Shown: positions 7,163 through 63,134 of the stretch, piece by piece
Position numbering within the stretch: the stretch's first letter is position 1
Layout: every line of letters starts with the position of its first letter
Source: Xanthobacteraceae bacterium
GTDB taxonomy: Bacteria > Pseudomonadota > Alphaproteobacteria > Rhizobiales > Xanthobacteraceae
Length of the DNA stretch: 64,000 nt
Direction of reading: 5' to 3'
Assembly (NCBI GenBank): GCA_040510815.1
Contig: JBEVIH010000031.1
Location: forward strand, 38,033 to 102,032
Made by a program: the position numbers and the translations under genes
The notes under the pieces: model-generated
The model's database searches: none
What the model was told of the DNA's origin: nothing
The model's input: only the letters and a program-made list of their open reading frames with translations

Positions 7163-8125
7163 TCAGGACGTGGTCGGCTTCGTTGTCGTGTCGACCGTCG
7201 CTCCCTCCTCCGGCGTCAGCGCCAGCAAGAGCGCGGCGATGCACGCCAGCACCAGGCCGACGAGCTTGAGCCGTCCCGGCAGCGTACCGATCGCGATGAG
7301 CGAGATCACCGCCGTCATCAGCGGCGCGCCCGCATTGGTGAGTGGCGACACGATGATCGCCTGGCCGTAGCGGAAGGCGTAGACGATGGTGAGCGCGCCG
7401 ATCGCGTTCAGCAGCTGGATCCCCGCCGCCAGATAGGGGCCGTCGGCGCCCCAGTTCACCGGCTTGGTGAAGTCGGTCATCGTCCACGCGATCGGAGCCA
7501 GCAACAGCCCCGTCGCCGTCATGTAGAAGAAGATGCTCTCCGCGCTCATCGTGCGGTTCGCGAGCCGCATGAAGTAGGCCTGCACGCCCCAGGCCCCCAT
7601 GACGATGAGCGAGAGCAGGAACCAGCCCCGCCCCTGGCTCGCGACCAGGCGCTCGCCTTCGGCAAGCTCCGGCGGGGAGAAATCGAACAACGGCAGCGCC
7701 GCGAGCGCGAGCAGGATGCCGGCCGCGCCCACGATGTTCGTGCGCTCGCCGAGCAGGAGAAAGGACATGGCGATGGTCACGACCGGCGACAGCGAGATCA
7801 GCGGAAAGATCAGATAGGGCGGACCCGTGGTCACCGCATGGAACAGCAGCATCTGGCCGCCGGCGCCGGTGAGCCCGATGATCACGCCATAGGCCACCGA
7901 TCGCGGATCGCGATCGAGCCGCCAGCCGGCGCGCGCGAGCGCATAGAGCGCCGGCGGGATCATCGTCAGCGACCAGACGCAATAGACCAGCGTCTCTGGA
8001 AAGCCGCGCTCCGCCGAGATCCCGGTGAACGCGCCCCACACGCCCCACAGGATCGTGGTTGCGAAGGCATAGAGCAGCCATGCCTTCGGCCGCGTCGCCT
8101 GGTGCAGGGCCACGTCCGACACCAT
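7163..8125 (-). CDS. EamA/DMT-superfamily transporter
   Basis: About 10 hydrophobic segments with a two-fold EamA-like organisation. Start taken at MVSDVALHQ (8125), which gives a TGATG overlap with the stop of the glycosidase gene. Confidence 0.7.
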   Translation of the reverse strand: MVSDVALHQATRPKAWLLYAFATTILWGVWGAFTGISAERGFPETLVYCVWSLTMIPPALYALARAGWRLDRDPRSVAYGVIIGLTGAGGQMLLFHAVTTGPPYLIFPLISLSPVVTIAMSFLLLGERTNIVGAAGILLALAALPLFDFSPPELAEGERLVASQGRGWFLLSLIVMGAWGVQAYFMRLANRTMSAESIFFYMTATGLLLAPIAWTMTDFTKPVNWGADGPYLAAGIQLLNAIGALTIVYAFRYGQAIIVSPLTNAGAPLMTAVISLIAIGTLPGRLKLVGLVLACIAALLLALTPEEGATVDTTTKPTTS

Positions 8126-10224
8126 CACGCCCCATCGAGCGGCGTTGCCTCGAGCAGAAGGAAGCGCTCGAACGCGACGGACAGCCGATTGGCCGTGGCC
8201 GATGCAACGCCGATCGTCCTGCCGGTGAAGCTGTCGGCTACGGTGTAGCGGCCCTCGCCGAGCCCGCGCAGCTCGACCGGGCCTTCCCAGCGATCGGCGT
8301 AGAACGCGTAGTAGCACCGGCCGTCCTTCGCAATGGCATGGGCTTCGGGTTTGTCGAAGCCGATATCGTAGAGCTCACCGCGATAGCGCCCCTCGGGAAG
8401 CCGCTTCTCGTTATAGAGCGCGATCCATTTGCGCCATTCCGCCTCTCGTGCCGGCGTCAGCAGGAAGCTGTTCTTCGGCTTTGGATCGCGCGGCCAGGTG
8501 AATTTGGTGGAAACAATCGCGCCGATCCCGACCGCGGAGGCGAAATCATTCGCCTTGTCGCTCAGCTCCACATGGTCGCCGGCATAGGCCGCCGAGGGCC
8601 CCATCAGCGCCTTGATCGTCTTGCCCTTGTGGCGGACCTGCCACGACGACTCCGGATCGGAGGCGACCGGCTGGTTCATGTACGGCATGTTGTGAAAGGC
8701 TTGCGCCGTGCCGCAAGGGCAGAGTTCGACCACCGCGTCCGGATCGATCGCGATCGCCTCCGCGTAGATCGCCCTCCAGAAGTCTTGCAGCTTTTCGACC
8801 GACTCCTCGGGCCGCGTGTGCCTGTGCGCCGGATTGTGGCAGGGCGCGACGCCGTTGAGGTGCTGGCCGTCGAGCTTGAGCCCGGCATAGCCCCATTCGC
8901 CGATGACCTTGCGCACCAGCGCCTTGCCCCGTTCCACCGTCTCCGGATAGGCCGGGCACAAATAATAGCTGTCCCACCAGGTCACGTTCTGCACCGCGCC
9001 GTCCTTGTCCAGCAGCAGCAGGTCGGCATGGTCGCGTATGAGATCGCTTGCCGGATGCGCGGCCAGCGGCGCGATCCAGAGCTTGGGTTTGAGGCCCGCG
9101 TCCTTGATCGCCTTGACGAGCGCAAGCATGTCGGCGTCGCCGCGCGGAAACTTTTTCGGGTCGGGCTGCCAGTCGCCCACCGCCCTCTGCCAGCCGTCGT
9201 CGAGCCCGGCCCAGCCGAGCCCGAGCTCCCTCGCCTTGGGCAGCGTCGCCACCACCAGGTCGACGGTGAAATCGCGCTCGTAGCCCCAGGCGCACCAGAT
9301 CGGCGCATAGGCGGCGGCCGGCACCTTGGCCTGCGCCATCCCGCGCTCGGCGAGCAGCCTGCGATAGGCGTCGAGCGTCGCGAAATAGTCGCCGCGATGA
9401 ACGGCCACGAAAGTCTCGAAGGTCGAAAAGCCCTCCCCCGGCGCGAGCGTCAGCGTCCGGTCGCATTCGACCGCGAGGCGCGCACCGGCCTCCGTCATCG
9501 TGAGCGGCAGCGCAACGAGCTTCGGCACCGTTTCGACATGGCCGGCCGCCAGCCCGTAGTCGCGCCGCCAGACGTCGACCACCGGCGTGCCGCCGCCGTA
9601 ATCGGACGCATTCATGCCCATGAAGTTGCGCTGATCGAAGCCGCCGCGCACCGGCTGCACCCAGTCCCGGCGATCCTCGTGCGATGCGCCCGAGAACGAC
9701 CAATAGTCGAGCGCGCCATCCGCCGCCGGCTTGAGGACATGCGCGCCGTTGACCCAGCCTTCGATCCTCACCGGCGCTGTGCCGACGTTGCGATAGGCGG
9801 CGCGCAGCAGCGCAAAGCCCGGGAAGCGATCGTAGAGGACAATGGCGACCTCTTTCTCGATCCCTTCGCCGGCAAGCCCGCGCAGCACATGCCGCGTGCC
9901 GCGGCCGTGCGCGTCGTCCACGGGCTCGCTGCGCCGGTCGAGGAAGGGGAAATGCTCGATGCGCTTGCCGTCCGCGAGCCGCAGCGTCTCGCTGGACTCG
10001 AACTCGGTGAGCGGCTCGATCCCGCCGCCCTGCCGCGCGATCACGCGGCTGCGCAGGCCTGAATCGAACTCGAGACTTATCGCCGCATCGCCCACCTGCG
10101 CCGGCGGCTCGGCCGCCGCTGCCAAGCCCGCGCCGAGGCGGCTCAGCCCGACGCCCGCAACTGATCCGGCCAGCAGCTTGAGGATGGTGCGCCTGCGGGC
10201 GGCTGGCGCGATGCCTTTGGGCAT
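8125..10224 (-). CDS. Tat-exported alpha-galactosidase-family glycoside hydrolase (clan GH-D, GH27/GH36-like)
   Basis: Twin-arginine leader MPKGIAPAARRRTILKLLAGSVAGVGL..AAAA. Motifs GWAGLDDGWQ, KPKLWIAPL and LKLDG are typical of melibiase-type enzymes. The longest ORF would start at 10284. Confidence 0.7.
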   Translation of the reverse strand: MPKGIAPAARRRTILKLLAGSVAGVGLSRLGAGLAAAAEPPAQVGDAAISLEFDSGLRSRVIARQGGGIEPLTEFESSETLRLADGKRIEHFPFLDRRSEPVDDAHGRGTRHVLRGLAGEGIEKEVAIVLYDRFPGFALLRAAYRNVGTAPVRIEGWVNGAHVLKPAADGALDYWSFSGASHEDRRDWVQPVRGGFDQRNFMGMNASDYGGGTPVVDVWRRDYGLAAGHVETVPKLVALPLTMTEAGARLAVECDRTLTLAPGEGFSTFETFVAVHRGDYFATLDAYRRLLAERGMAQAKVPAAAYAPIWCAWGYERDFTVDLVVATLPKARELGLGWAGLDDGWQRAVGDWQPDPKKFPRGDADMLALVKAIKDAGLKPKLWIAPLAAHPASDLIRDHADLLLLDKDGAVQNVTWWDSYYLCPAYPETVERGKALVRKVIGEWGYAGLKLDGQHLNGVAPCHNPAHRHTRPEESVEKLQDFWRAIYAEAIAIDPDAVVELCPCGTAQAFHNMPYMNQPVASDPESSWQVRHKGKTIKALMGPSAAYAGDHVELSDKANDFASAVGIGAIVSTKFTWPRDPKPKNSFLLTPAREAEWRKWIALYNEKRLPEGRYRGELYDIGFDKPEAHAIAKDGRCYYAFYADRWEGPVELRGLGEGRYTVADSFTGRTIGVASATANRLSVAFERFLLLEATPLDGA

Positions 10225-10431
10225 TGTCGCTACTCTATCTGGCGCGCCATGGACAGGCGCCTTCGAATCCTCGGCTCGGGCCATATATGCTCGCAGATTC
10301 CGCTGGCATCAAGGCGGGCAACATTGATCACAAGGCCGAAGGACCTCTGGCTGCCCCGCCCGGTCCCCGTGCCCTGCTCGCATCAGGACCTGTGCTACAC
10401 TCTGGACGAAAGGACATGGCGGACCGAGGTG

Positions 10432-12195
10432 ATGGCGTCGGATTCTCGATTGTTTGACCGCTACATTCGCACGCGGCCCGCAAGCCGACTGCAACTCGTC
10501 GCTCTGGTCCTGCTTTCGCTGGCCGCTTCGACCTTCGTGCAGGCCCGGCAAGGGCCGAGCATCCCGTCGCTCTATTCGGACCGTGAGCCCTTCGTGGCGG
10601 CGATTGAAAAAGAGCGGCCCAAGCAAAAATCCGACGTCAAGTTGACGGGCATCACCGTGCCGCACCACCTGTTGGCGGCGGATCTCATCGCCCGCGGCTT
10701 CTGGGCTGCGTCGGCCGGCTCGTACGATCGCATCATCCTGGTGTCCCCGGATCACTTCAACCGCAGCCGCCGGCCGCTCGCCACCACCCGGCAGGACATC
10801 GAGACGCCGTTCGGCCTCGTTCGCAATGACGACGCGGCGACCGGCCGGCTGTTGTCCAACGACGCGCTGTTCGACGAGAGCGATCTGTTCAAGCAGGAAC
10901 ACGGCATCGCGGCCGTGCTGCCGTTCGCCAAGTATTTCTTCCCGGATGCACGCATCGTCCCGATCGTCGTGTCCTATGGCTCCACCCGCGCGGACTGGGA
11001 CGCGGCGGTCGCAATGCTCGAAGCATTTGTCGAGCCCGGCACGCTGATCGTCCAGTCGACCGACTATTCGCACTACCTGACGCAGCAGCTTGCGGTCCGG
11101 CGCGACCAGGAAACGCTCAACGTCATCGCGGCAAACGACGTAGACATCGTCGCGCGGTCGCGGCAGCCCGACCACATGGACTCGAAGGGCTCCCAGTACA
11201 TCCAGATGCGGCTGCAGGAGGTAAAAAAGGCGCGCGCAACTGTGATCGCCAGCCGCAGCTCAGCCGAGTACAGCTCGATCGGGTCGGCGACCACCAGCTA
11301 CATCGTGACCGTCTATTCGAGCGAGATCGAGGACGGCTCCAAGCTGCAATACGACGACCAGGAGATCGTCTATTTCGGCGGCGATACCTTCATCGGCCGA
11401 TGGTTCACCCGGCCGCTCGCCGATCCGGAGATCGCGCGCCAGGTCGTGGCGAAGGTGCGCGCCGTCACCGCGGGAGCGCCGTTGATCGTCAACCTGGAAG
11501 GGCTGCTGCTCGACGACCCGCCTTACGGCGTGGCTCCCGATCTGCACATGATGCACGCCAGCCTTACGGTGCCGATCCTCAAGGCGCTCAACGTGCGGGC
11601 GGCGGGTCTTGCCAACAATCACAGTCACGACCTCGGGCCGGCTGGTTTGCGCGAAAGCGTGGCGATCCTGAAACGGGCGGGGATCACGCCGCTGCAACAC
11701 ATGCAAGCCGTCGATCTCGGCCGCTTCGGTCTCATCGCGATCAATTTCATCGGGTCACGCGACCACCGAGGCTATCCGGTGGTCAAAAGCCCGGCCGATC
11801 TGCAGTCGCTGTGCCGCATGAAGGCGCGTTCGCCGCTGATCGCGCTGGTGCATTGGGGCGAGGAGTATCACCGCGTCGCGCAAGCCGCCAACTACACCGC
11901 CGCGCAAGCGCTGCACACATGCGGCGTCAACGCCATCATCGGCGCGCACAGCCATCATGCCGCCCAGCGGGTCGAAGCGATGCAGGGCGGCGAGTTTGCG
12001 ATGGTGTTCTCGCTGGGCAACCTGCTGTTCGATCAGCGCGGCGAGCGGGTCTCGAGCGCGCTGGTGGAGCTGCGGCTGTTCAAGCAAGGCACGTTCGCCA
12101 CCCGGCTCGTGCCGCTGCCGAATCTATTCGAGCTTGCCACCGGCGAGATGGCCCGCAAGGCGAGCGGAGAACAGCCCGCAGCTAGCGCTCGCTAG
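10432..12195 (+). CDS. exported fusion protein: MEMO1/AmmeMemoRadiSam-B-like domain + CapA (PGA_cap) metallophosphatase-like domain
   Basis: ATG at 10432 preceded by GAGG. Signal/anchor LQLVALVLLSLAASTFVQA. Memo-like VPHHLLAADLI..ILVSPDHF..QSTDYSHY. CapA-like YFGGDTFIGRW..ANNHSHDLG..LVHWGEEY..GAHSHH. Confidence 0.75.
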   Translation: MASDSRLFDRYIRTRPASRLQLVALVLLSLAASTFVQARQGPSIPSLYSDREPFVAAIEKERPKQKSDVKLTGITVPHHLLAADLIARGFWAASAGSYDRIILVSPDHFNRSRRPLATTRQDIETPFGLVRNDDAATGRLLSNDALFDESDLFKQEHGIAAVLPFAKYFFPDARIVPIVVSYGSTRADWDAAVAMLEAFVEPGTLIVQSTDYSHYLTQQLAVRRDQETLNVIAANDVDIVARSRQPDHMDSKGSQYIQMRLQEVKKARATVIASRSSAEYSSIGSATTSYIVTVYSSEIEDGSKLQYDDQEIVYFGGDTFIGRWFTRPLADPEIARQVVAKVRAVTAGAPLIVNLEGLLLDDPPYGVAPDLHMMHASLTVPILKALNVRAAGLANNHSHDLGPAGLRESVAILKRAGITPLQHMQAVDLGRFGLIAINFIGSRDHRGYPVVKSPADLQSLCRMKARSPLIALVHWGEEYHRVAQAANYTAAQALHTCGVNAIIGAHSHHAAQRVEAMQGGEFAMVFSLGNLLFDQRGERVSSALVELRLFKQGTFATRLVPLPNLFELATGEMARKASGEQPAASAR

Positions 12196-12258
12196 CCTAT
12201 GTTCGGCTGCTTTGCGCACGTAATATTCGCGAGCGCCGCCAAATTCGACGACCAACCG

Positions 12259-14595
12259 CTATCTGAGCGGCTGGCGCTTGATGCCGCTGTCGGTGTCGGG
12301 GTTCGCCTTGTATGGCTCCACCTGGTCGAACAGCGAGCAGTTCTGCTCTCTGCGCTTGAACGTGAATGCGACACAGGCATCTTCCGCCGCGCAGCGCGCA
12401 TTGCATTCCTCCAGCGTTGTCTGCTGGGCGATCAGGTACCCGAAGCCGGAAAACGCCTGGTCGCGATAGCCTTCGATGATCTTTGGGACGCTGGCGCTGC
12501 TCGGCAGCGGCGTTCCCTTCTTCAGCCCGAACACATATTGAGGATCGAGCCGCGTCTCCTTCGCCGAGCTCTTCAGGAAACATGTTTGCCGCCAATTGTC
12601 GTAGGTATAGCCACGACAGCGGGGCTCGGCCCCGCAGGCCTCCTGGCACTCGAACGAATATTTTTTCTGCGACTGCCCCAGGTCGTCGCCCACCAGATAG
12701 TAATTCGAGCGCAAGTCCTCATCGCCCTGCGGGCCCTGCCTGTCGAAGCTCGAGAGAGCGAACCATCGCGGCCGGTAATAGAGAAGATTGATCGGCCGCG
12801 ACTTGATTTCGCGCCCATCCGCCAACTGGATCACGACGCTGAGGTCGTGCGAGGACGACTTCGCGGCCTCGACCGGCAGGACCAAGCGAGCGGTTTGACC
12901 CGCGGCGACCGTGGTCTGGTAGGAGATCGCGATGCGATAGTCCTTGGCGTCGAGCCGCAGCTGTTGCGTCTTCCGGGTGATGATCTCGCGCTGCCCGCCT
13001 TCGCCCTGCTCCACTTCCTGCTTGAGCGCACCGACCATCAATTTGATGTTGAATGGCGATGAGGCCTGTTTCGCTGCCCCCGACGCGTCCTCCCAGACGT
13101 ATTCGAGGTCGCCGGAGACGCCGACCATGATGCGATTCTCATCCAGGGACAGGAGCGGACCCAGGGAGCCGAAAGCGCCCGTCGCCACGACTTCGCGCAG
13201 GCAGGCCGCCCGCTGCTTGCTTCGGCACGGAAAGCCCTCGCTGCTGTTGCGCTTGAGCACGCTCAGGTTGACGCCGGCGGCCTCCAGGTCGCTCTCGAAG
13301 TTGACCTTCACGCTGCGCTCAATCGCGCCGACCGTGTTGGTCCGTCGCGGCGCGGCGCCTGCGGGCGACCTCGGATTGACGAACTTCAATTGCAGCTTGG
13401 CGTCCTTGGCGGCCGACCAGCCGAAGTTCTCGACGAAATAGTAGGGCCGATAGTGTCCCTCATCGAAACTGGATTCCCCGAAAGCGCTGTCCTGCGACAT
13501 CTGAATGGCGGGTTGCAGGTCGGTTACGCTGGAATCGACCTGCAGGTAGACGCCCGCGATCTGAGCTGGCCGCGGCGATCGGTTCTGCACCTCGATCATG
13601 AAATTGAGCGGGACGAACTGTCCCCTGACCAGGGAAAGCACGCCGTAATTGTCGTAATTCTTGCCCTCCTCCTCTCTTTGCGTGAGCTGGATCTCGCCGC
13701 GCCCCTTCCACATGCTCATCAGGCGCCGGTTATCCGGCCGGATCAGCAGCCCGTTGGCTGCATTAGAGACGGCGTACCAGAGATCGCCCTTCTGCAGGTC
13801 GGAGCCGGCTTCGTTGCGTGACGAGACCGGCAGCCGCTTGTCCAGCGTGATCGCGATGCGGATATCGTCGGAGCCGCCGGGCACGCGGGTGCCCGGGGCT
13901 TGCGCCAGACGGATGAGACGCGAGCTTTCGCTTTCCTTGCCGGCGCTCCACAGCGACGTGTACTTGTAGCCGCTCGGCAATGTCGTCGTTCCGCGCCCGT
14001 GCCGCCGGCCGTCGACGAACGGGCCCTCGTAGATCTCGCCGGTCACGTCGATCAGGCGGCCGGGCCCATTGGCCTTGCCCGAGCGGAACTGACCCACGTA
14101 TTCGTCACCGCTCGGCAGCGTCAGCGTGCCGTGGCCGTCCATGCGGCCGGCCTTCCACTCGCCGTCGTAATAGAGACCGGAGCGGGCGAGGTAGATGCCC
14201 CGTCCCTCGATCCGCCCCTCGCGCACGGTGCCGCGATACTCGGCGAACACCGACGACGGGTCATAGGCGGGCTTGCCCTTGATGCGCCAGATAAGGTGCC
14301 CGCTGCCGTTGATCCGGCCCGGTCTCTCGTCGGAGGGCCGATCCGGCGTCCAGATGAAATCCAGATCGCGCGAGGGCTCGGCGTCCCAGACCGTGTACAT
14401 GCGCCGCGACAGCGTGCGCGTCGCTGGATCGAACACCTGCTGGATCTTGGTGCGCCACGCGCCCGGCTCGACCGACGCGGCGCCTGCGAGCTCGGGATCG
14501 CCGATGCCGTCATTTTGTTCTGCCGCGAGCGCGGCGGTCATCGTGGTCGCGAGCGCAAGGAGGCAAACCGAAGTCAGCCTGCTGAAGTCGTTCAT
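12259..14595 (-). CDS. exported MORN-repeat / PAN-Apple domain protein
   Basis: Start at the internal Met (MNDFSRLTSVCLLALATTMTAALAAEQ, a signal peptide) with GGGGAG upstream. It has 4-5 MORN repeats (YDGEWKAGRMDGHG, YVGQFRSGKANGPG, YEGPFVDGRRHGRG..), a roughly 400-aa unassigned middle, and two C-terminal PAN/Apple-like Cys patterns (FECQEACGAEPRCRGYTYDNWRQTCFLK; LEECNARCAAEDACVAFTFKRREQNCSLF). Confidence 0.8.
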   Translation of the reverse strand: MNDFSRLTSVCLLALATTMTAALAAEQNDGIGDPELAGAASVEPGAWRTKIQQVFDPATRTLSRRMYTVWDAEPSRDLDFIWTPDRPSDERPGRINGSGHLIWRIKGKPAYDPSSVFAEYRGTVREGRIEGRGIYLARSGLYYDGEWKAGRMDGHGTLTLPSGDEYVGQFRSGKANGPGRLIDVTGEIYEGPFVDGRRHGRGTTTLPSGYKYTSLWSAGKESESSRLIRLAQAPGTRVPGGSDDIRIAITLDKRLPVSSRNEAGSDLQKGDLWYAVSNAANGLLIRPDNRRLMSMWKGRGEIQLTQREEEGKNYDNYGVLSLVRGQFVPLNFMIEVQNRSPRPAQIAGVYLQVDSSVTDLQPAIQMSQDSAFGESSFDEGHYRPYYFVENFGWSAAKDAKLQLKFVNPRSPAGAAPRRTNTVGAIERSVKVNFESDLEAAGVNLSVLKRNSSEGFPCRSKQRAACLREVVATGAFGSLGPLLSLDENRIMVGVSGDLEYVWEDASGAAKQASSPFNIKLMVGALKQEVEQGEGGQREIITRKTQQLRLDAKDYRIAISYQTTVAAGQTARLVLPVEAAKSSSHDLSVVIQLADGREIKSRPINLLYYRPRWFALSSFDRQGPQGDEDLRSNYYLVGDDLGQSQKKYSFECQEACGAEPRCRGYTYDNWRQTCFLKSSAKETRLDPQYVFGLKKGTPLPSSASVPKIIEGYRDQAFSGFGYLIAQQTTLEECNARCAAEDACVAFTFKRREQNCSLFDQVEPYKANPDTDSGIKRQPLR

Positions 14596-14665
14596 TGCCA
14601 GCTCCCCTGCGGTCGCACGCCGGGTGGCGCAACCCATCTCTTCGCTCGGAATGCAATTTCTAGCG

Positions 14666-17600
14666 TCAATTCTGGGACGCAATGGATACCGGCGCAAGAG
14701 CCTCGATCCGCCGCTGCCATTTGGCCGGATCGAGACCGATCACGTTGATCGCCGACTCTGTTGTCGCCAATGCGATGGCATCGTTTCCGATCCACGCCAG
14801 CCAGGTCGCGGCCCGCTCGCGATCCTTTGCATCGGCCACCGCGGAGCGCCGCGGGAGCGCGCCGAACACCGCGTAACGCTCGGCGCCATCCTCGCGCAGG
14901 CTCCAGACATAGACACGGTTCTCGGAACCGAGCGCGGCGAGCTTGCTCCCGTCGGGGCTGAAAACGACCGCGCGAGGTCCGTCCGTGGTCATGTCCATGG
15001 GGAGCGCCCGCCAGGTGCGTTTGCGCGCGATGTCGTAGACGCGGACATAGCTGTCGCCGCCCGAGGTGGCGAGCCACCGGCCGTCCCGGCTCACCGCCAG
15101 GCTGCCGGCCGCGACCGGATCGCGCTTTTCCGCAAGCGTATAATCCATCGACCCCATCGGTTTGCGGGTGGCGAGGTCCCAGATGCGGATTTCGCCGTCG
15201 GAATCCGTGTAGCTCACGAACAGCGTCTGGCCGGAAGGGTCCACGGCCAGGCCCCATGGCGCTTGATCGGATCCGATCGGCTCGAGGTAGTGCTGGGCCC
15301 GCGTGCCGAATGCCGCGACCTCGATCAGGACCACGCGCTTGTCGCTGTGCAGCGGCATCGCGATCGACCTGTCGTGCTGCGCGAACACGATTCGGGTGTC
15401 CTGATCGGTGTCGATGTCGATCTCCTGGGCCGGTTGCGCAGCGTTCGGCGGGATGAGCGTGATGCCGCGGCTGTCATGCGCGGCGGCGAGCAGGCCGGAT
15501 TGCGCCCAGGCGAGCGCGGCCACTTCCGACTCGTTCGAGGACCTGATCGTCCGCGACAGCGAGCCCGCCGCCGCATCCCAGATGCGAATGCTGCCGTCCT
15601 TGGCGCCGGCCGCCAGCCAACGGCCGTCCAGCGACGTCGCGACCTTGGTGAGCTGCGCGGAGGTCTCCGCGTAGAGGACAAAGCCGGCGTCGGCGTCCTG
15701 GGCCACGCTCCAGACCCGCAAGGTGCCGTCGGCAGCAGCGGAGACGACTTGGTCGCCGTCGGGGGACCAGGCAAGATGGGTGACGCCGTTGGTGTGCCCC
15801 TCGAAGCGCCGGACCGGCGTAAAGCTCGCCGCCCCCTTTGCATCGACCGCGCCCGACCACAGGCAGACGGGTCCGCCCTCGCAAGCGAACGCCAAGTCGA
15901 GTCCCTGCGAGCTCCAGGCCAAGGTCGTTATCGGGGCGCCGGCGAGCGAGGGCTTGGCGATCACCGGTCGGGCCGGATCGCCGGCATCGACGATGACGAT
16001 GTCGCCGTTGGCGTTGCCGGCGGCGAGCCAGTCGGCCGCCGCTGCCCATCCGAGCGCCAGCAATGTGCCGCCGACCTTGATCGACTCGCCGAGGCGGAGC
16101 CCGGCGCGGTCATGGATCGAGACCAAACCATTCGCATCCGCGACCGCGATGCGGGTCTCGTCCGGGCTGATGGCGACGGCCCTCCCCCGCGCGTCCGCCA
16201 GCGGGCGCTCCCGGCACTGCGGCGCCGTCTGCCGGGCAGCGGGAATCGCGCATTCCAAGATGGTGACGTCGCCGTCGATCGACGCCGTCGCGATCAGCGT
16301 TCCACGCGCGCCGATCGCGACCGCGTGTGCGCCCGCTTGCAGCGACTTGGCCGCCGATGCCGGCGTCCACGCCTGCCCCGCCGTGGCGCCGCGCTCGGTG
16401 AGCACGACCGCGCCGTTGTCCAGGACCGCTACGACGCGGTCGGAGCCGAGGCCGCGCATGGCGCGCACGGTCGCCCGGTTGCCGTCCTGGGCGCGGGTCA
16501 GCCGCGGCATCGGCCAGTCGGCTCCGGCGCGGCCGCGGCCGGCTTGGCTCAGGTCGAGCGTCCGCAACGCACCACCGACCTTGGCCGGTGCAAAGACGAC
16601 GGCGTCGCGCGAGCCCCAGGCGATCGCTTCGGCGCCATTGGCGGCGATATCGAAGGTCGCCCGCAGATGCGGCGAAACCTCGAACACCGCGGCGGCGAGC
16701 GCGGAGCGGCTCGCCTCGCTCGGCAGCTCCTTGAACGCCCGCGCCGCATGGTCGATCGCCGACGCCACCTGGCCGTCGTTCAAGTCGGAGCGCGAGCGGA
16801 CGAGCCAGAGCGAAGCTTGCGCCTCCTTGCGAGCCTGCTCCGCCGTTTGCCAGAACTTGGTGGCGACGCCGCCGAGCGCGGCGGCGATGGCGCCGAGCAC
16901 GGCGAAAATCGCAGCCGCCGCGATGGCGCGCCGCTGCCAGCGCCGTGCGGTCTCGGCGCGCTCGGTCGCGCGCTCGGTTTCGGCCTTGGCGCGGGCGAGC
17001 TCCGCCTGGCGCAGCCGCTCCCGCTCGGCGGCGCGCTCGGCTTCCAACCGCTGCGCCTCGTCGGCGGAGGCTTTGATGTAGGCGGCTTCGTCGGCCGAGA
17101 AGCGCGCCGGGTGTGCGGCGAGCCAGGCCTTGGCGCGCTCGAGCAGGATGCCGCTCAACAGCCCCTTGACCTGTTCACCGCCGCCGAGCCGCGCGTAATC
17201 CTCGCGCGCCTTCTCGATCCGCGACCTGCCGATGAGAAACTCCCGCTCCTCCTCCAGCCAGCCGGCGAGCAGCTGCCAGACCCGGAAGATCGCCTCGTGG
17301 GCGACCTCGACGTGGGTGGTACCATCGTCGTCGGGCGCAATGACCAGAAGGCGGGCGTCGGCGAGGCAGCGCAGCAGCCGTTGCGCGGGCGGCGGCAGCG
17401 CATCGAGCTCCGCCTCGTCGCGCACGAAGCCGCCTTCGTCATTGACCTTCACCAGCGCGGGCACGAAGGCCTCGCGCAGCGCGGCAAGCTCCTCGGCGGA
17501 GGGATTGGCGACGTCGAGCGTGGCCTTGGCGGCATCGCGCACCACGACCTCCAAGGGCGAGAGCGGGCCGTCGCGCAGCGCCTCGTAATGGATCGCCATC

Positions 17601-18799
17601 AGCACGCCGCCCGAGGCATAGCGGTCGTGCAGCTGACGCAAGGTGAACGCGACCAGCGGCAGCACGTCGAGCGTCTTGGCGTCGCGCGCAATCGCCGTCA
17701 CCAAGGCATCTTCGGCACGCAGCCCGGCGACCCGCGCGGGACCTTGCACAATCAGGCCCAGCCGTTCGATCGGCATCGGGTTCAACAGGAAATGTTCGAA
17801 GCGGGCCGTAAGCCCTTCCGCGGTCTGAAGGTCGGGCAGATGATCGGCCCGCAAGGTCAGCACCGCGAGCGCGGGGTGATCGGCGGCGAGCAGCGCCGAC
17901 AACTGCTTGAAGAACGCAGCGCGCGTTTCCGCGGTTGCGCGCGTGAACAGCTCTTCGGCCTGGTCAATCGGGATGATCACCGTGGCCTGCGCCGCGCGGG
18001 CGGCTTGCCTGACCGCGTCGATCAGATCCAAGGCCGCCGGCGGGGTAACGGCCTCGTCGAAGCGCTGCCGTGACAGGCCGCTGTCGATCGCCTTAAATGC
18101 GTTGAACAGCTCCCGCAGCGGATCGACGCCGGGCCGGAACGCCGGCAAGACCAGGAAATTCTCCTTGTCGCGGGCGATGCGCGGAAGAACGCCGGCCTTG
18201 AGCAGCGAGGACTTGCCGGAGCCGGACCCGCCGACGACGGCGAAGATCTTGGCGCCGCCCTGCACGCGCCTGGCATTGAAGCGTTCGATGGCGCGGCGGA
18301 CCTCGTCGTCGCGGCCGAAGAAGATCGCCGCGTCGGCCGCCTCGAACGACATCAGGCCCGGATAGGGCGCGCGGCCCTTCTGCCAGTCGAACCCGCCTTG
18401 CGCATCGAGCGCCACCTCGCGCAGCCGGCGCGCCAGCCGCTCGAGGCCGCCCTCGCGGTTGCTGGTGAGATCGAGGTGCTGGATGTCGTTGGAGACGAAT
18501 TGCTCGCCGGCCGGGCTTTCGACGATGGCGAAGATAGCCTTGCCCAGGGCCCGCGCCTGGGCGAATTCGGCAAAGCACCACTTGGAGGCGAACCAATGCT
18601 TGGTGAGGATCAGAATGACGGCCTGCGAGCGCTCGAGCTCGCTGTAGAGCCGCCGCTCCCAATCGTCGCCCGGCGAGATGCCGGCTTGGTCGTCGAAATC
18701 GAGAAAAGACTTGTCGAAGCCGATCCCGTCCAACCATGCCTTCATGCGCTGGGCGGGCTCCCCATCGACGCTGGCATGGGAAATGAAGATGCGCGCCAC
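14666..18799 (-). CDS. TIR domain / STAND-type P-loop NTPase / coiled coil + predicted TM helix / WD40 beta-propeller protein
   Basis: 1377 aa, GTG start with GGAG upstream. TIR: IFISHAS..LILTKHWFASKWCFAEF (conserved Glu78). Pre-P-loop motif PYPGLMSFEAADAAIFFGRDDE. Walker A GGSGSGKS (aa 190-197). Walker B-like VIIPIDQAEE (aa 274-283). Charged coiled coil aa ~575-622. Hydrophobic AIAAAAIFAVLGAIAAALGGVAT (aa 624-646). WD-like blades such as GHTNGVTHLAWSPDGDQVVSAAADGTLRVWS, DGSIRIWD, DGEIRIWD, YVRVYD, RVYVWS. Confidence 0.9.
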   Translation of the reverse strand: MARIFISHASVDGEPAQRMKAWLDGIGFDKSFLDFDDQAGISPGDDWERRLYSELERSQAVILILTKHWFASKWCFAEFAQARALGKAIFAIVESPAGEQFVSNDIQHLDLTSNREGGLERLARRLREVALDAQGGFDWQKGRAPYPGLMSFEAADAAIFFGRDDEVRRAIERFNARRVQGGAKIFAVVGGSGSGKSSLLKAGVLPRIARDKENFLVLPAFRPGVDPLRELFNAFKAIDSGLSRQRFDEAVTPPAALDLIDAVRQAARAAQATVIIPIDQAEELFTRATAETRAAFFKQLSALLAADHPALAVLTLRADHLPDLQTAEGLTARFEHFLLNPMPIERLGLIVQGPARVAGLRAEDALVTAIARDAKTLDVLPLVAFTLRQLHDRYASGGVLMAIHYEALRDGPLSPLEVVVRDAAKATLDVANPSAEELAALREAFVPALVKVNDEGGFVRDEAELDALPPPAQRLLRCLADARLLVIAPDDDGTTHVEVAHEAIFRVWQLLAGWLEEEREFLIGRSRIEKAREDYARLGGGEQVKGLLSGILLERAKAWLAAHPARFSADEAAYIKASADEAQRLEAERAAERERLRQAELARAKAETERATERAETARRWQRRAIAAAAIFAVLGAIAAALGGVATKFWQTAEQARKEAQASLWLVRSRSDLNDGQVASAIDHAARAFKELPSEASRSALAAAVFEVSPHLRATFDIAANGAEAIAWGSRDAVVFAPAKVGGALRTLDLSQAGRGRAGADWPMPRLTRAQDGNRATVRAMRGLGSDRVVAVLDNGAVVLTERGATAGQAWTPASAAKSLQAGAHAVAIGARGTLIATASIDGDVTILECAIPAARQTAPQCRERPLADARGRAVAISPDETRIAVADANGLVSIHDRAGLRLGESIKVGGTLLALGWAAAADWLAAGNANGDIVIVDAGDPARPVIAKPSLAGAPITTLAWSSQGLDLAFACEGGPVCLWSGAVDAKGAASFTPVRRFEGHTNGVTHLAWSPDGDQVVSAAADGTLRVWSVAQDADAGFVLYAETSAQLTKVATSLDGRWLAAGAKDGSIRIWDAAAGSLSRTIRSSNESEVAALAWAQSGLLAAAHDSRGITLIPPNAAQPAQEIDIDTDQDTRIVFAQHDRSIAMPLHSDKRVVLIEVAAFGTRAQHYLEPIGSDQAPWGLAVDPSGQTLFVSYTDSDGEIRIWDLATRKPMGSMDYTLAEKRDPVAAGSLAVSRDGRWLATSGGDSYVRVYDIARKRTWRALPMDMTTDGPRAVVFSPDGSKLAALGSENRVYVWSLREDGAERYAVFGALPRRSAVADAKDRERAATWLAWIGNDAIALATTESAINVIGLDPAKWQRRIEALAPVSIASQN

Positions 18800-19000
18800 G
18801 CTGCGCTCCGTGGGCCTCTCGTCGGCGGAATTTCAGAGCATTGTACCGTAGCCGTGCAAAAACGGCCAACCGCGCCTGCTTCGAACCGGCTGTCGCGGCG
18901 CAGGTGCATGCGGCCGCCTTTCCGGCGCGGCGCTTGCCATGGCCGCACTGCAAATGATTAACCTTCGGCGGCCTGCCAGGTGCCCGGGGAAGGAACGCCG

Positions 19001-20692: not shown

Positions 20693-20743
20693 TGCGTTCC
20701 AGCCGGATGCGTGACAATGCCGGAGGAACGCCCCTTACCCCGG

Positions 20744-21550
20744 TCAGGCGCGAGCGATCGGAATGGCGACGAACTTCGTCGCCTCGTCCGACTTCAACCG
20801 CATCAGCACCGCGCGCTTGCCATTCATTTGGGCGTCCCTGATGGCATTGCGCACGTCGACCGGGGTAACGACCTTTTTCCCGCCAACATCCAGGATGATG
20901 TCGCCAGCCTTGAAGCCGTGTCCGGAGGCAAGACCGTTGGGATCGATGTCGATCACGACGACGCCTTCGGAGCCGCTGCCCGCGACATGTTCAGCGGAAG
21001 CCAGTATCAAGCCGAGCTTTGGCACGTCGGTGCCGCTTGTGCCGGGCTGCGGTGTCGCGACGGGGCGGACCGCGTGCTGCTTCGGCATGTCGCTGAGCGT
21101 CAGCGAGACGCTCTTCTCGGCGCCCTCGCGCCAAATCGTGACGTTCACCGCGGCGCCGGGGGCCATGCTGGAAATCTGCATGGCGAGGTCGCGGGCATCC
21201 TTGACCGGATTATCGTTGAGGGCGGTGATGACATCGCCGGACAGGATGCCGGCTTTGGCGGCGGGGCTATCGGCCATCGGTTCGGCAACCAACGCGCCTT
21301 TGCTGTCCTTCATGCCGAGGCTTTCAGCGATGGCGGAGGTGACCGGCTGAATCTGGACACCAATCCAGCCGCGGCCAAGGCTTGACGCGCCCTCCGCGGC
21401 ATTTGCTGCGGGGAAGGTGGGAAGTACCGATTGGCGGAAGCCATCCGGCCCGAATAAAAGCGCGGCGATCGCGAGATTGGCGGCAGCGGCAAGAAGGATA
21501 AGGCGCCGCACGGAAGCGCCGTGTCCCGGTTTGCATTGCAGGGTCATCAT
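20744..21550 (-). CDS. tandem-PDZ domain protein (HtrA/DegP C-terminal-like, no protease domain)
   Basis: Signal/anchor RRLILLAAAANLAIAALLF, then two PDZ-like units (GWIGVQIQPVTSAIAESLGMKDSKGALV..AAKAGILSGDVITALN; GVVVIDIDPNGLASGHGFKAGDIILDVGGKKV). No His-Asp-Ser trypsin-like region is present. Confidence 0.75.
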   Translation of the reverse strand: MMTLQCKPGHGASVRRLILLAAAANLAIAALLFGPDGFRQSVLPTFPAANAAEGASSLGRGWIGVQIQPVTSAIAESLGMKDSKGALVAEPMADSPAAKAGILSGDVITALNDNPVKDARDLAMQISSMAPGAAVNVTIWREGAEKSVSLTLSDMPKQHAVRPVATPQPGTSGTDVPKLGLILASAEHVAGSGSEGVVVIDIDPNGLASGHGFKAGDIILDVGGKKVVTPVDVRNAIRDAQMNGKRAVLMRLKSDEATKFVAIPIARA

Positions 21551-21752
21551 GATGCTTGCATCTCCGTTCGATTGATGGCGCCGGCGGCGCCGTGTTGGCC
21601 GGCTAAATGGGGGCGACGGCATTACTTCGAGGTGGCCGTGGAATTAATATTTGGCAATCAATCGCGGCTTGAACGTGCCGCGTTGCCTGCAATCCAAGGA
21701 CAGCAAGAAATTGACCCGGCCTGCCGCCGCCAAATTCGTCATTTTTTTCTTC

Positions 21753-21804
21753 ATGCCGCACGCCAAAGAGATGGCGGAATGCCGCACCCCAAAGAGATGG
21801 CGGA
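21753..21804. repeat. 26-bp tandem direct repeat, 2 copies (ATGCCGCACsCCAAAGAGATGGCGGA)
   Basis: Read directly: copies at 21753-21778 and 21779-21804 differ at one base. The 26-nt period is not a multiple of 3. It lies in the intergenic region about 180 bp upstream of the TctC gene. Confidence 0.9.
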
Positions 21805-21981
21805 GGGACCAGAGACTTTTCGCGTATCAGGTGTCGGAGCACCCACATGCAGCTTGTGGCTGGCTGCGTGCGTGACAAAACTCTGTCTTGCAAGGCCAGA
21901 AAACGTAGATATTCGCCCCGGTCCGAGACTCATCTGGGGAATCCCGGGATACAATGACGGACCAACGCGGAGGAGCCTAAG

Positions 21982-22959
21982 ATGATGAGAGCCCTGCTTG
22001 CGGCATCGCTATGCGCCGGATGGGCGCTGCACGGCATCGACACCGCGCACGCCCAAGCCTATCCCAACCGGCCGATCCGGATGGTCGTGCCGTTCCCGGC
22101 CGGCGGCCCGACCGACGGCATCGCGCGCATCATCTCGGACCGGCTCGGGGCCGTCCTCGGCCAAACCGTCGTGGTCGAGAACCGCGGCGGCGGCGCCGGC
22201 GGCAGCATCGGCGCCAAGGCGGTCGCCACCGCCGATCCCGACGGCTACACCATCCTGATCACGCCCGGCGGCTCGCTGACCACCGGCCCGGCCGTGCACA
22301 GCAATATCGGCTACGATCCGGTCAAGGCGTTCGTGCCGGTCTGCCAGGTGATCGACACCCCCCAGGTCATGGCCGTGCACCGCGACCTGCCGGTGAAGAC
22401 GCCGGCGGAGGTGGTGGCCTACGCCAAGGCCAATCCCGGCAAGGTCAGCTGGGGCTCCCAGGGCTTCGGGACCGCCCCGCACCTGCTCGCCGAATTGTTC
22501 AAGCTCGAAACCGGCGCCAATATCGTGCATGTGCCCTATCGCGGGACGGCGCCGATGCTCGCGGCCGTCGTGGCGGGCGAAGTCCAGATCGTCATCGACC
22601 CGCTGACCACGGTCCTGCCGCACATCCAATCCGGCGCGCTGCGCGCGCTGGCGGTTACCCATGCGCAGCGCAGCCCTAAATTGCCGGACGTGCCGACCGT
22701 ATCGGAGGCGGGCTTCCCCAAGCTGCAGGCGACGTTCTGGCTGGGCGTGGTGGCGCCGGCCGGCACTCCGCCCGAGATCATCAACAAGCTCAACGCCGCC
22801 TTCCGCGACAGCCTCGCCCCGCCGGAAACACGTGCGCGACTCGCCACGCTCGGCGCCGACATCAAGATCGGCACGCCGGCCGAATTCGAAAAGATGCTCG
22901 CCGACGAGCTCGCGAAGTGGACCGCCATCGTCAAGGCCGCCAACATCAAGGTGGAATGA
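21982..22959 (+). CDS. Bug/TctC-family tripartite tricarboxylate transporter substrate-binding protein
   Basis: Signal peptide followed by the hallmark YPNRPIRMVVPFPAGGPTDGIAR, later GYTILITPGG and VPYRGTAP. GGAGGAG RBS. Confidence 0.9.
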   Translation: MMRALLAASLCAGWALHGIDTAHAQAYPNRPIRMVVPFPAGGPTDGIARIISDRLGAVLGQTVVVENRGGGAGGSIGAKAVATADPDGYTILITPGGSLTTGPAVHSNIGYDPVKAFVPVCQVIDTPQVMAVHRDLPVKTPAEVVAYAKANPGKVSWGSQGFGTAPHLLAELFKLETGANIVHVPYRGTAPMLAAVVAGEVQIVIDPLTTVLPHIQSGALRALAVTHAQRSPKLPDVPTVSEAGFPKLQATFWLGVVAPAGTPPEIINKLNAAFRDSLAPPETRARLATLGADIKIGTPAEFEKMLADELAKWTAIVKAANIKVE

Positions 22960-63059: not shown

Positions 63060-63134
63060 TGGCTGGGGCGCCAGGATTCGAACCTGGGAATGGCGGAATC
63101 AAAATCCGCTGCCTTACCACTTGGCTACGCCCCA
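63060..63134 (-). tRNA. tRNA-Gln (anticodon UUG), CCA encoded
   Basis: The reverse complement folds as a cloverleaf: acceptor UGGGGCG/CGCCCCA, D arm GCC-AAGUGGUAA-GGC, anticodon arm GCGGA-UUUUGAU-UCCGC, T arm CCAGG-UUCGAAU-CCUGG, then G-CCA. 75 nt. Confidence 0.9.

Follow-up and report, generated by a model that had tools for sequence, protein, structure and literature searches.

Which cellular process could be served by a TIR-bearing STAND protein whose repeat sensor is predicted to lie in the periplasm, and whose gene sits next to genes for two exported proteins? This question is raised by a locus in a 64,000-nucleotide stretch of DNA (hereafter the window) from a Xanthobacteraceae bacterium (GenBank assembly GCA_040510815.1, contig JBEVIH010000031.1, positions 38,033 to 102,032 of the forward strand). 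The locus holds three adjoining genes: G1, encoding a TIR / nSTAND1 / transmembrane (TM) / WD40 protein; G2, encoding an exported MORN-repeat protein; and G3, encoding an exported or anchored fusion of Memo and PGA_cap (CapA-like) domains. Pfam annotation and comparison with other genomes revealed that G1, G2 and G3 form a conserved and uncharacterised three-gene unit. Its architecture, a membrane-spanning NLR-like receptor with two predicted periplasmic partners, is well supported by the sequence data. The best reading of its function, to which we give about an even chance, is a transmembrane NLR-like conflict system that surveys the envelope and has NADase activity as its output.

A preliminary description of the locus had recognised G1 and G2 as a two-gene module lying between unrelated housekeeping or catabolic operons. 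Both open reading frames (ORFs), for the 1377-aa TIR protein and for the MORN/PAN protein, proved real at the positions given there, on the minus strand. The module itself had to be enlarged to three genes: one of the supposedly unrelated flanks is G3, a conserved component that converges on G2.

The three-gene unit across genomes

We defined the triad as an adjacent set of a (TIR or DUF4062)-nSTAND1-TM-WD40 gene, a gene for the G2 core (mostly with a MORN sheet) and a Memo + PGA_cap fusion. A G3 alignment was scanned against one genome per GTDB species (185,579 species representatives), which yielded 40 loci with full-length G3; the presence of G1 and G2 near G3 was scored by six-frame phmmer. 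Loci in which 7 kb or more of sequence was available on each side of G3 were counted as fully flanked (n = 26). Homologous loci and contexts compared with the window are referred to by L-numbers.

G2 adjoined G3 in 37 of the 40 genome loci, the other three being cut by a contig edge, and a G1-type gene was found in 33. Among the fully flanked loci, G2 was present in 26/26 and G1 in 25/26, and the complete arrangement of the window recurred in 25 of these 26. The link between G1 and the MORN gene, suspected from the start, was equally clear when approached from G2: in each of six contexts around G2 homologues, one from B. japonicum and five on metagenomic contigs, a G1-type nSTAND1-WD40 protein of 1380–1410 aa is followed by one to three MORN paralogues and then by a Memo + PGA_cap gene in either orientation (6/6), with outer flanks that are unrelated from locus to locus. 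In the genome loci, too, the orientation of G3 flips while adjacency is kept.

All carriers were Alphaproteobacteria, namely Enterovirga, Devosia, Beijerinckiaceae, Bauldia, Dankookia, Rhizobium sp. SL86, Roseicyclus, Silicimonas, Paracoccaceae and Micropepsaceae. With 40 loci in the 185,579 species representatives, the module is rare and patchy. The conjugative plasmid pRL31b3 of R. leguminosarum carries a diverged triad next to a gene for a CHAT-domain protein; its members are a TIR protein of 1322 aa, a core-only G2 of 408 aa and 'amrB'. The earlier view of the locus as an insert-like unit holds in part: in other genera the surroundings of the module are unrelated, and one copy is on this plasmid, whereas relatives of the window at 93–98% identity are syntenic with it. 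No integrase was seen beside the module in the window. The GC content is uneven over window positions 12000–17500, at 0.62–0.64 in G2 and the last part of G3 and up to 0.73–0.74 in mid-G1; this may fit a chimeric history of the module, and the boundary does not fall cleanly at the TM junction.

Individual loci showed further variants. L034 and L036 contain two G3 and two G2 copies around one G1-type gene. In L004, which is on the same contig as L010, a 147-aa gene with a SAM_1/SAM_2 domain (L004:5309-5752) lies directly upstream of G1. Enterovirga rhinocerotis DSM 25903 (L043:11605-16653) has G3 and G2 with a TctC gene between them and no G1 within 10 kb; a gene for a gamma-glutamyltranspeptidase (GGT; PF01019, E 2e-111) comes after G2. 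Although seen in one case only, a GGT in the company of a CapA-type enzyme is noteworthy, since CapD of B. anthracis belongs to the GGTs. In the metagenome assemblies L051, L052, L007, L009, L038 and L044, G1, G2 or G3 is broken up into two or three ORFs; the breaks in L051 and L052 (93–98% identity to the window) look like assembly frameshifts, not real pseudogenes.

Domains and predicted topology of the three proteins

The features of the three genes are collected in Table 1. The first domain reading of G1 and G2 was correct throughout: G1 carries TIR_2, nSTAND1, a TM helix and WD40 repeats, and G2 a signal peptide, MORN repeats and two PAN stretches. All motifs picked out in G1 at that stage are likewise present, namely WCFAEF with Glu78, PYPGL...FFGRDDE, GGSGSGKS with Lys196, and IDQAEE.

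Table 1. Features of the G1–G2–G3 locus (window positions) and of conflict-type genes near homologous loci (positions in the respective L-numbered locus); RBS, ribosome-binding site
Feature	Position	Strand	Description and basis
G1	14666..18799	minus	1377 aa, GTG start; single-pass TIR / nSTAND1 / coiled coil / TM / WD40; ORF, translation, Pfam, 32 aligned orthologues
G1 TIR domain	18434..18799	minus	aa 1-122; TIR_2 match; Glu78 in SKWCFAEF
G1 nSTAND1 NTPase	17186..18367	minus	aa 145-538; PF20703; Walker A GGSGSGKS (Lys196), Walker B IDQAEE (Asp279, Glu282, Glu283)
G1 TM helix	16859..16936	minus	aa ~622-647; Kyte-Doolittle 2.38; after charged coiled coil ending RRWQRR
G1 predicted periplasmic region	14669..16858	minus	aa 648-1377; WD40 beta-propellers; Cys pairs C850/C862 and C973/C979
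Promoter-like site upstream of G1	18840..18869	minus	TTGGCC-18-TACAAT; consensus scan only; weak (1 found, 0.9 expected by chance)
G1–G2 spacer	14596..14665	minus	70 nt; RBS AGGGGAG 6 nt before G2 ATG; no terminator-like site in scan
G2	12259..14595	minus	778 aa; exported MORN / beta-sandwich core / 2 x PAN-Apple; translation, Pfam, AlphaFold2 model
G2 MORN repeat sheet	13945..14460	minus	aa ~46-217; PF02493, E 2.3e-18; Foldseek MORN1 and junctophilin, E 1e-10
G2 core	12730..13869	minus	aa 243-622 (380 aa); tandem beta-sandwiches, small helical insert; near-invariant Cys pair C457, C465
G2 PAN/Apple x 2	12274..12714	minus	aa ~628-774; PAN_1 in two stretches (E 7.5e-18), PAN_4; Foldseek factor XI and prekallikrein apple domains
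G3	10432..12195	plus	587 aa; exported or anchored Memo + PGA_cap (CapA); convergent on G2, 63 nt between stop codons
G3 Memo/LigB-like domain	10621..11304	plus	invariant PHH, SPDHF, EHG, QSTDYSHY motifs (alignment)
G3 PGA_cap domain	11359..12126	plus	CapA-like, metallophosphoesterase-type; Pfam; FGGD, NLEG, ANNHSxDLG, HWGxEY, GAHSH
Extra TIR (one fused to FGE-sulfatase), nSTAND1 and CHAT genes	L001:886-4598, 20726-22237; L003:1-1253; L005:526-4152; L007:16635-18899; L033:1-1399; L053:838-3648		

The TIR_2 match in G1 spans aa 4–122 (E 3.6e-16; 60.2 bits against a Pfam cut-off of 28). Its closest solved relative is Brucella TcpB/BtpA (4c7m), in which the residue paired with Glu78 is also a Glu, the catalytic residue of BtpA. 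The Glu78 column contained Glu in 32/32 of the full-length G1 orthologues that we aligned, DUF4062 forms included. The nSTAND1 match is far stronger (E 2.5e-74; 251.6 bits against a cut-off of 27.1), and the GxSGxGKSS and DQxEE motifs are kept in all 32 orthologues; a search among PDB sequences returned no relative of this domain. Many WD40 and beta-propeller families of Pfam match aa ~855–1303, giving G1 a C-terminal repeat sensor, and the PDB relatives of this region include PkwA, Apaf-1 and WDR5. A long plus-strand ORF opposite G1 (14273–18073, 1266 aa) was dropped, the domain matches being all on the minus strand; to judge from sequence, very long antisense ORFs of this kind, devoid of domain support, are typical high-GC artefacts.

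A hydrophobic helix occupies the same place in 32/32 G1 orthologues, with three to seven Lys and Arg residues within 15 aa before it and one to four after it, a positive-inside bias. Both Cys pairs of the WD40 part are kept in 30–32 of the 32 orthologues, while the cytoplasmic Cys478 is not conserved. Because of the helix, the charge bias and the Cys pairs, and because TIR and P-loop NTPase domains depend on the NAD+ and NTP of the cytoplasm, we predict G1 to be an N-in/C-out single-pass inner-membrane protein with a double WD40 propeller in the periplasm. This would place the WD40 part in the same compartment as G2 and G3, which have signal peptides and conserved Cys pairs of their own. A membrane helix after nSTAND1 is not confined to G1: a TM helix lies at the same position in ~95 of the 120 closest TIR-nSTAND1 relatives, the majority of them with TPR repeats. 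These TPR-type proteins, and the shorter WD40-type ones, are solo genes without G2 or G3.

The junction between G1 and G2 agrees with the preliminary description in its short gap, G-rich RBS and lack of a terminator-like site; G2 begins at ATG 14595, exactly 70 nt past the G1 stop. The N-terminal signal peptide of G2 reads LTSVCLLALATTMTAALA-AEQ, and 98 strong homologues of the protein were recovered. In an AlphaFold2 model of the whole protein (pLDDT 86), the MORN sheet is followed by tandem beta-sandwiches, which hold the small helical insert, and by two Apple domains; the core modelled by itself reached a pLDDT of 89.6 and a pTM of 0.87. The core had been set down as a ~400-aa unassigned region, and its 380 aa did lack any match in Pfam, NCBIfam and PADLOC; phmmer against PDB sequences found none either. 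Foldseek matches of the whole model were confined to the MORN and Apple parts, and the core-only model gave no significant match in the PDB, the best (E 1.5e-3, probability 0.35) reflecting a general likeness to Ig-type beta-sandwiches. With just 295 matching clusters among 1.84 billion representatives, the core family is very small; it occurs in three architectures: MORN + core (~600 aa), MORN + core + PAN (~780 aa) and core only (~400 aa). On the strength of these models and searches, the core belongs to no described family and is a new, structurally unmatched domain, predicted to be periplasmic.

The MORN/PAN label given to this partner needs correcting: MORN and core are conserved, whereas PAN domains are confined to the clade of the window together with L001–L003, and most G2 proteins (~600 aa) lack them. 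G2 is most likely an exported non-catalytic binding protein, present in one to three paralogous copies, in which the MORN sheet is conserved and the core, with or without PAN/Apple domains, is variable.

G3 begins with a hydrophobic segment, either a signal peptide or an anchor (LQLVALVLLSLAASTFVQA). Its start is probably ATG 10432, which is favoured by the lengths of the homologues and by the signal peptide. The ORF is open as far as ATG 10249 (window 10249–10431, 183 nt), which overlaps the start of a divergent melibiase-like gene (8125–10284, minus). Both domains were recognised by Pfam (Memo, E 7.3e-24; PGA_cap, E 1.4e-24), and TIGR04336 (AmrB/Memo) matched above its cut-off with 101.8 bits. 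A profile match to human MEMO1 pairs SPDH of G3 with GPSHH and STDYSHY with SSDFCHW, so that the motifs fall on the His, Asp and His positions of MEMO1, and the PGA_cap motif columns are invariant in 17/17 sequences. G3 is the most conserved component of the module, with a mean column identity of 58% vs 33% for G2. With catalytic-type residues kept in both domains, G3 is probably an active two-domain metalloenzyme combining a Memo/LigB-like domain with a CapA-like phosphoesterase fold.

Exchange of the cytoplasmic cassette and relation to known systems

Identity to the window was compared across 30 loci. The WD40 region, the MORN part of G2 and the G2 core all followed G3 (Spearman 0.80, 0.84 and 0.83, respectively), whereas the nSTAND1 region of G1, at 27–41% identity, was anticorrelated with G3 (−0.45). 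The TIR-nSTAND1-TM half of the window protein is 58–67% identical to TIR-nSTAND1-TM-TPR proteins vs 27–36% to the NTPase of other triads. Since the WD40 region, G2 and G3 co-vary and the NTPase half does not, the sensor, predicted to be periplasmic, evolves together with G2 and G3. Going by the alignments, the cytoplasmic TIR-NTPase cassette is a unit exchanged by recombination near the TM helix.

The effector is variable as well. At least seven G1 orthologues (L001, L018, L033, L034, L036, L037 and L040) have DUF4062 in place of TIR. DUF4062 was experimentally characterised as a TIR-like NADase with a catalytic Glu, serving as the effector of Avs2 variants and of other defence systems (bioRxiv 10.64898/2026.09.04.749371; 10.64898/2026.05.01.722283). 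The use of two alternative NADase-type domains at the N-terminus of G1 argues for NAD+ cleavage as the predicted output. The NAD-directed effector first proposed for this locus is therefore plausible, both through this replacement and through the alignment of Glu78 with the Glu of TcpB/BtpA.

How far does the triad resemble systems that are already known? Like Avs and other bacterial NLR-like proteins, G1 has three parts, namely an effector of NADase type at the N-terminus, a STAND NTPase bearing Walker A and B motifs in the middle and a repeat sensor at the C-terminus, and like Avs it swaps TIR for DUF4062. Known Avs proteins, in contrast, are soluble, single and bind phage proteins in the cytoplasm; the NTPase of G1 belongs to the nSTAND1 clade, a TM helix separates switch from sensor, the sensor is predicted to be periplasmic, and two exported partners are obligatorily linked. 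Given the helix, the positive-inside bias and the Cys pairs, G1 is not expected to be a soluble cytoplasmic protein. The PADLOC profiles for Avs, bNACHT and TIR-NLR did not match G1, for which the only returns were a P-loop fragment and TIR matches of the ThsB type, none above 25 bits. The statement that no characterised system corresponds to the locus thus stands, these weak domain-level ThsB matches being all that the PADLOC run gave. Thoeris, the system to which the 25-bit ThsB-model match of the TIR domain points, was rejected: neither the window flanks nor the Pfam-annotated homologous contexts hold a ThsA (SIR2/Macro-SLOG) gene, and the TIR domain of G1 is fused to a STAND NTPase.

In domain logic the triad also resembles the nSTAND1 conflict systems (Kaur, Iyer, Burroughs, Aravind, eLife 2021, PMC8195603) and nSTAND1 sensors diversified by diversity-generating retroelements (DGRs; PMC10907252), which share PF20703 and the sequence of effector, NTPase and sensor. 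The accessible portions of these two accounts deal with EAD/Death-like adaptors, FGE-sulfatase/CLec sensors and DGRs, and contain neither a TM-WD40 form nor MORN and Memo-CapA partners (PMC8195603, PMC10907252).

Eukaryotic proteins offer two further comparisons. The order of effector, STAND NTPase and two WD40 propellers is that of Apaf-1 and of human TEP1 and NWD1 (CARD or DUF4062 - NOD - WD40), and the DUF4062-bearing G1 orthologues mirror TEP1 and NWD1. The NTPase of G1 is of another clade, however, and its membrane insertion would bar the propellers from folding back, so that autoinhibition as in Apaf-1 is not directly applicable. With Toll-like receptors (TLRs), G1 would share an extracytoplasmic repeat sensor, a single TM helix and a cytoplasmic TIR domain, and clustering is a natural model for both. 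This is an analogy without whole-protein homology: the TIR domain of G1 is N-terminal (reversed polarity), the repeats are WD40 rather than leucine-rich, G1 contains an inserted NTPase switch, and its TIR domain probably works as an enzyme, not as an adaptor.

G3 resembles AmrB of the AmmeMemoRadiSam system in passing the TIGR04336 cut-off and CapA of CapBCA in its PGA_cap domain, and in public annotations it goes under names taken from them ('AmmeMemoRadiSam system protein B', 'poly-gamma-glutamate synthesis protein'). In the context of the triad both are misleading, because G3 is exported and fused and the partner genes are absent from the annotated contexts. Membership of AmmeMemoRadiSam was rejected, as no AMMECR1 (AmrA) or radical-SAM (AmrS) gene occurs in the Pfam-annotated contexts, and so was membership of the poly-gamma-glutamate CapB/C/A system: these contexts have no CapB or CapC neighbours, and PGA_cap occurs alone, fused to Memo.

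Some triads have conflict-type genes nearby (Table 1). Extra TIR or nSTAND1 genes were found within 10 kb in L001, L003, L005, L007 and L033, a semi-quantitative form of defence-island evidence, and other neighbours include an integrase and a transposase (L002), BrnT (L006) and a CHAT protein (L053). The extra TIR, nSTAND1 and CHAT genes hint at clustering of the triad with conflict-type genes.

Further from the module, the window contains a gene for a 292-aa protein with two PDZ domains (20744–21622, minus) between genes for a thiamine pyrophosphate (TPP) enzyme and TctC, which is also found in the close relative L052. The only tRNA gene of the window, tRNA-Gln (TTG), is located at 63060–63134 (minus), far from the module.

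Proposed function and rival explanations

In the mechanism that we propose, G2 and G3 would act jointly on a molecule of the periplasm or envelope, binding and processing it, and the periplasmic WD40 region of G1 would read the state of the G2/G3 complex or of its ligand. Activation would come from ligand- or adaptor-driven clustering, relayed via the juxtamembrane coiled coil; with the membrane between sensor and NTPase, the WD40 region could not fold back in the manner of Apaf-1, and clustering is thus the most plausible route. Clustered G1 would oligomerise through nSTAND1 and bring its TIR domains together, and these would hydrolyse NAD+ or make an NAD-derived signal, whereupon growth would halt. 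The logic would be that of envelope surveillance, combining, by analogy, a TLR-like topology with an NLR-like switch. We infer the ligand sensing in the periplasm, the NADase output and the defence role of the triad. The exchange of TIR and DUF4062, the recombination of the cassette, the duplication and divergence of G2, the rarity and patchiness of the module and the occasional TIR, nSTAND1, CHAT, BrnT or integrase neighbours all fit a role in conflict.

Several observations weigh against such a role. Export of the 730-aa WD40 region of G1 is a prediction from its sequence features, and contact of G2 or G3 with this region is presumed. No PADLOC system model matched any of the three proteins, and NCBIfam likewise gave no system-level match. 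A tblastn search with G2 found no copy in 50,697 phage records, a G3 pattern scan found none in IMG/VR, and of 72,556 plasmids a single one has the module. The window and its 93–98% identical relatives are syntenic, with metabolic genes on their flanks. Finally, G2 and G3 occur without an adjacent G1 in L014, L031 and L043; the periplasmic pair would therefore be functional independently of G1, which may do no more than monitor a routine process of the envelope or of metabolism.

This last point leads to the main rival, non-immune envelope or nutrient signalling, which we consider unlikely on balance. Here G2 and G3 would work in the periplasm as a conventional pair of binding protein and enzyme, with an envelope polymer or a compound from outside as their target, and G1 would transduce the state of this pair to NAD-derived signalling or regulation in the cytoplasm, without suicide. 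Such a role would suit the persistence of the pair without G1 (in L043 beside TctC and GGT genes), the synteny among close relatives and their metabolic flanks, the absence from phages and near absence from plasmids, and the position of G3 as the most conserved component with its catalytic-type residues kept. It accords poorly with the alternation of TIR and DUF4062 at the N-terminus, which is a pattern of immune STAND proteins (bioRxiv 10.64898/2026.09.04.749371), and with a cytoplasmic module recombined between sensor types, a duplicated and divergent G2 and so rare and patchy a distribution; moreover, no nearby gene encodes a downstream reader for a signal made by the TIR domain. An interaction with hosts or neighbours, in which Alphaproteobacteria of soil and rhizosphere would secrete G2, with its lectin-like PAN/Apple domains and MORN repeats, as an adhesin or to bind host glycans, and G1 would signal that the cell is touching a eukaryotic host or competitor, is improbable in our view. 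Root-nodule bacteria have an excess of PAN domains, which are secreted and for which a role as host-binding lectins has been proposed (PMC4653623); homologues occur in Bradyrhizobium, Rhizobium and Devosia, and one copy is on an R. leguminosarum plasmid; against this, PAN is limited to one subclade and missing from most G2 proteins, and many carriers are free-living in soil, marine or groundwater habitats (Enterovirga, Roseicyclus, Silicimonas, Paracoccaceae). That G1 is a self-contained, cytoplasmic Avs-like sensor and that G2 and G3 are unrelated bystanders has next to no probability. The related TIR-nSTAND1-TM-TPR and shorter WD40 proteins are indeed solo genes. Chance adjacency of G1, G2 and G3 was nevertheless rejected on the strength of co-occurrence and co-variation: they adjoin in 25–26 of the 26 fully flanked loci, in several alphaproteobacterial families and despite varied orientation and flanks, and the identities of WD40, G2 and G3 co-vary. 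The loci are not copies of one recently spread element, as G3 identities range from 41% to 73%, and the TM helix and conserved Cys pairs speak against a cytoplasmic sensor.

To our knowledge, all characterised bacterial STAND/NLR-type sensors detect their triggers in the cytoplasm. The searchable literature on nSTAND1, on STAND with MORN and TIR, on Memo with CapA, on transmembrane or periplasmic STAND proteins and on bacterial MORN/PAN proteins yielded no description of the triad. Measured against it, the family of periplasmic repeat sensors, its linkage to two exported proteins and the free recombination of an NADase-NTPase cassette between sensor types were not found described, nor was evidence that the sensor and the switch/effector halves form distinct evolutionary modules. 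We tentatively suggest, with more doubt than confidence, that these proteins may be the first recognised outward-looking bacterial NLR-like immune receptors. A periplasmic WD40 sensor, a diversifying MORN/beta-sandwich adaptor and a guard-like Memo-CapA enzyme would together detect an envelope invader or envelope damage before genome entry and respond by NAD+ depletion, in effect the prokaryotic equivalent of a TLR joined to an NLR switch.

If the reading as an envelope-surveillance system is correct, bacterial NLR-like surveillance would reach the cell envelope. The triad would then also provide a tractable system for studying STAND activation across a membrane, in which clustering would take the place of released intramolecular autoinhibition.

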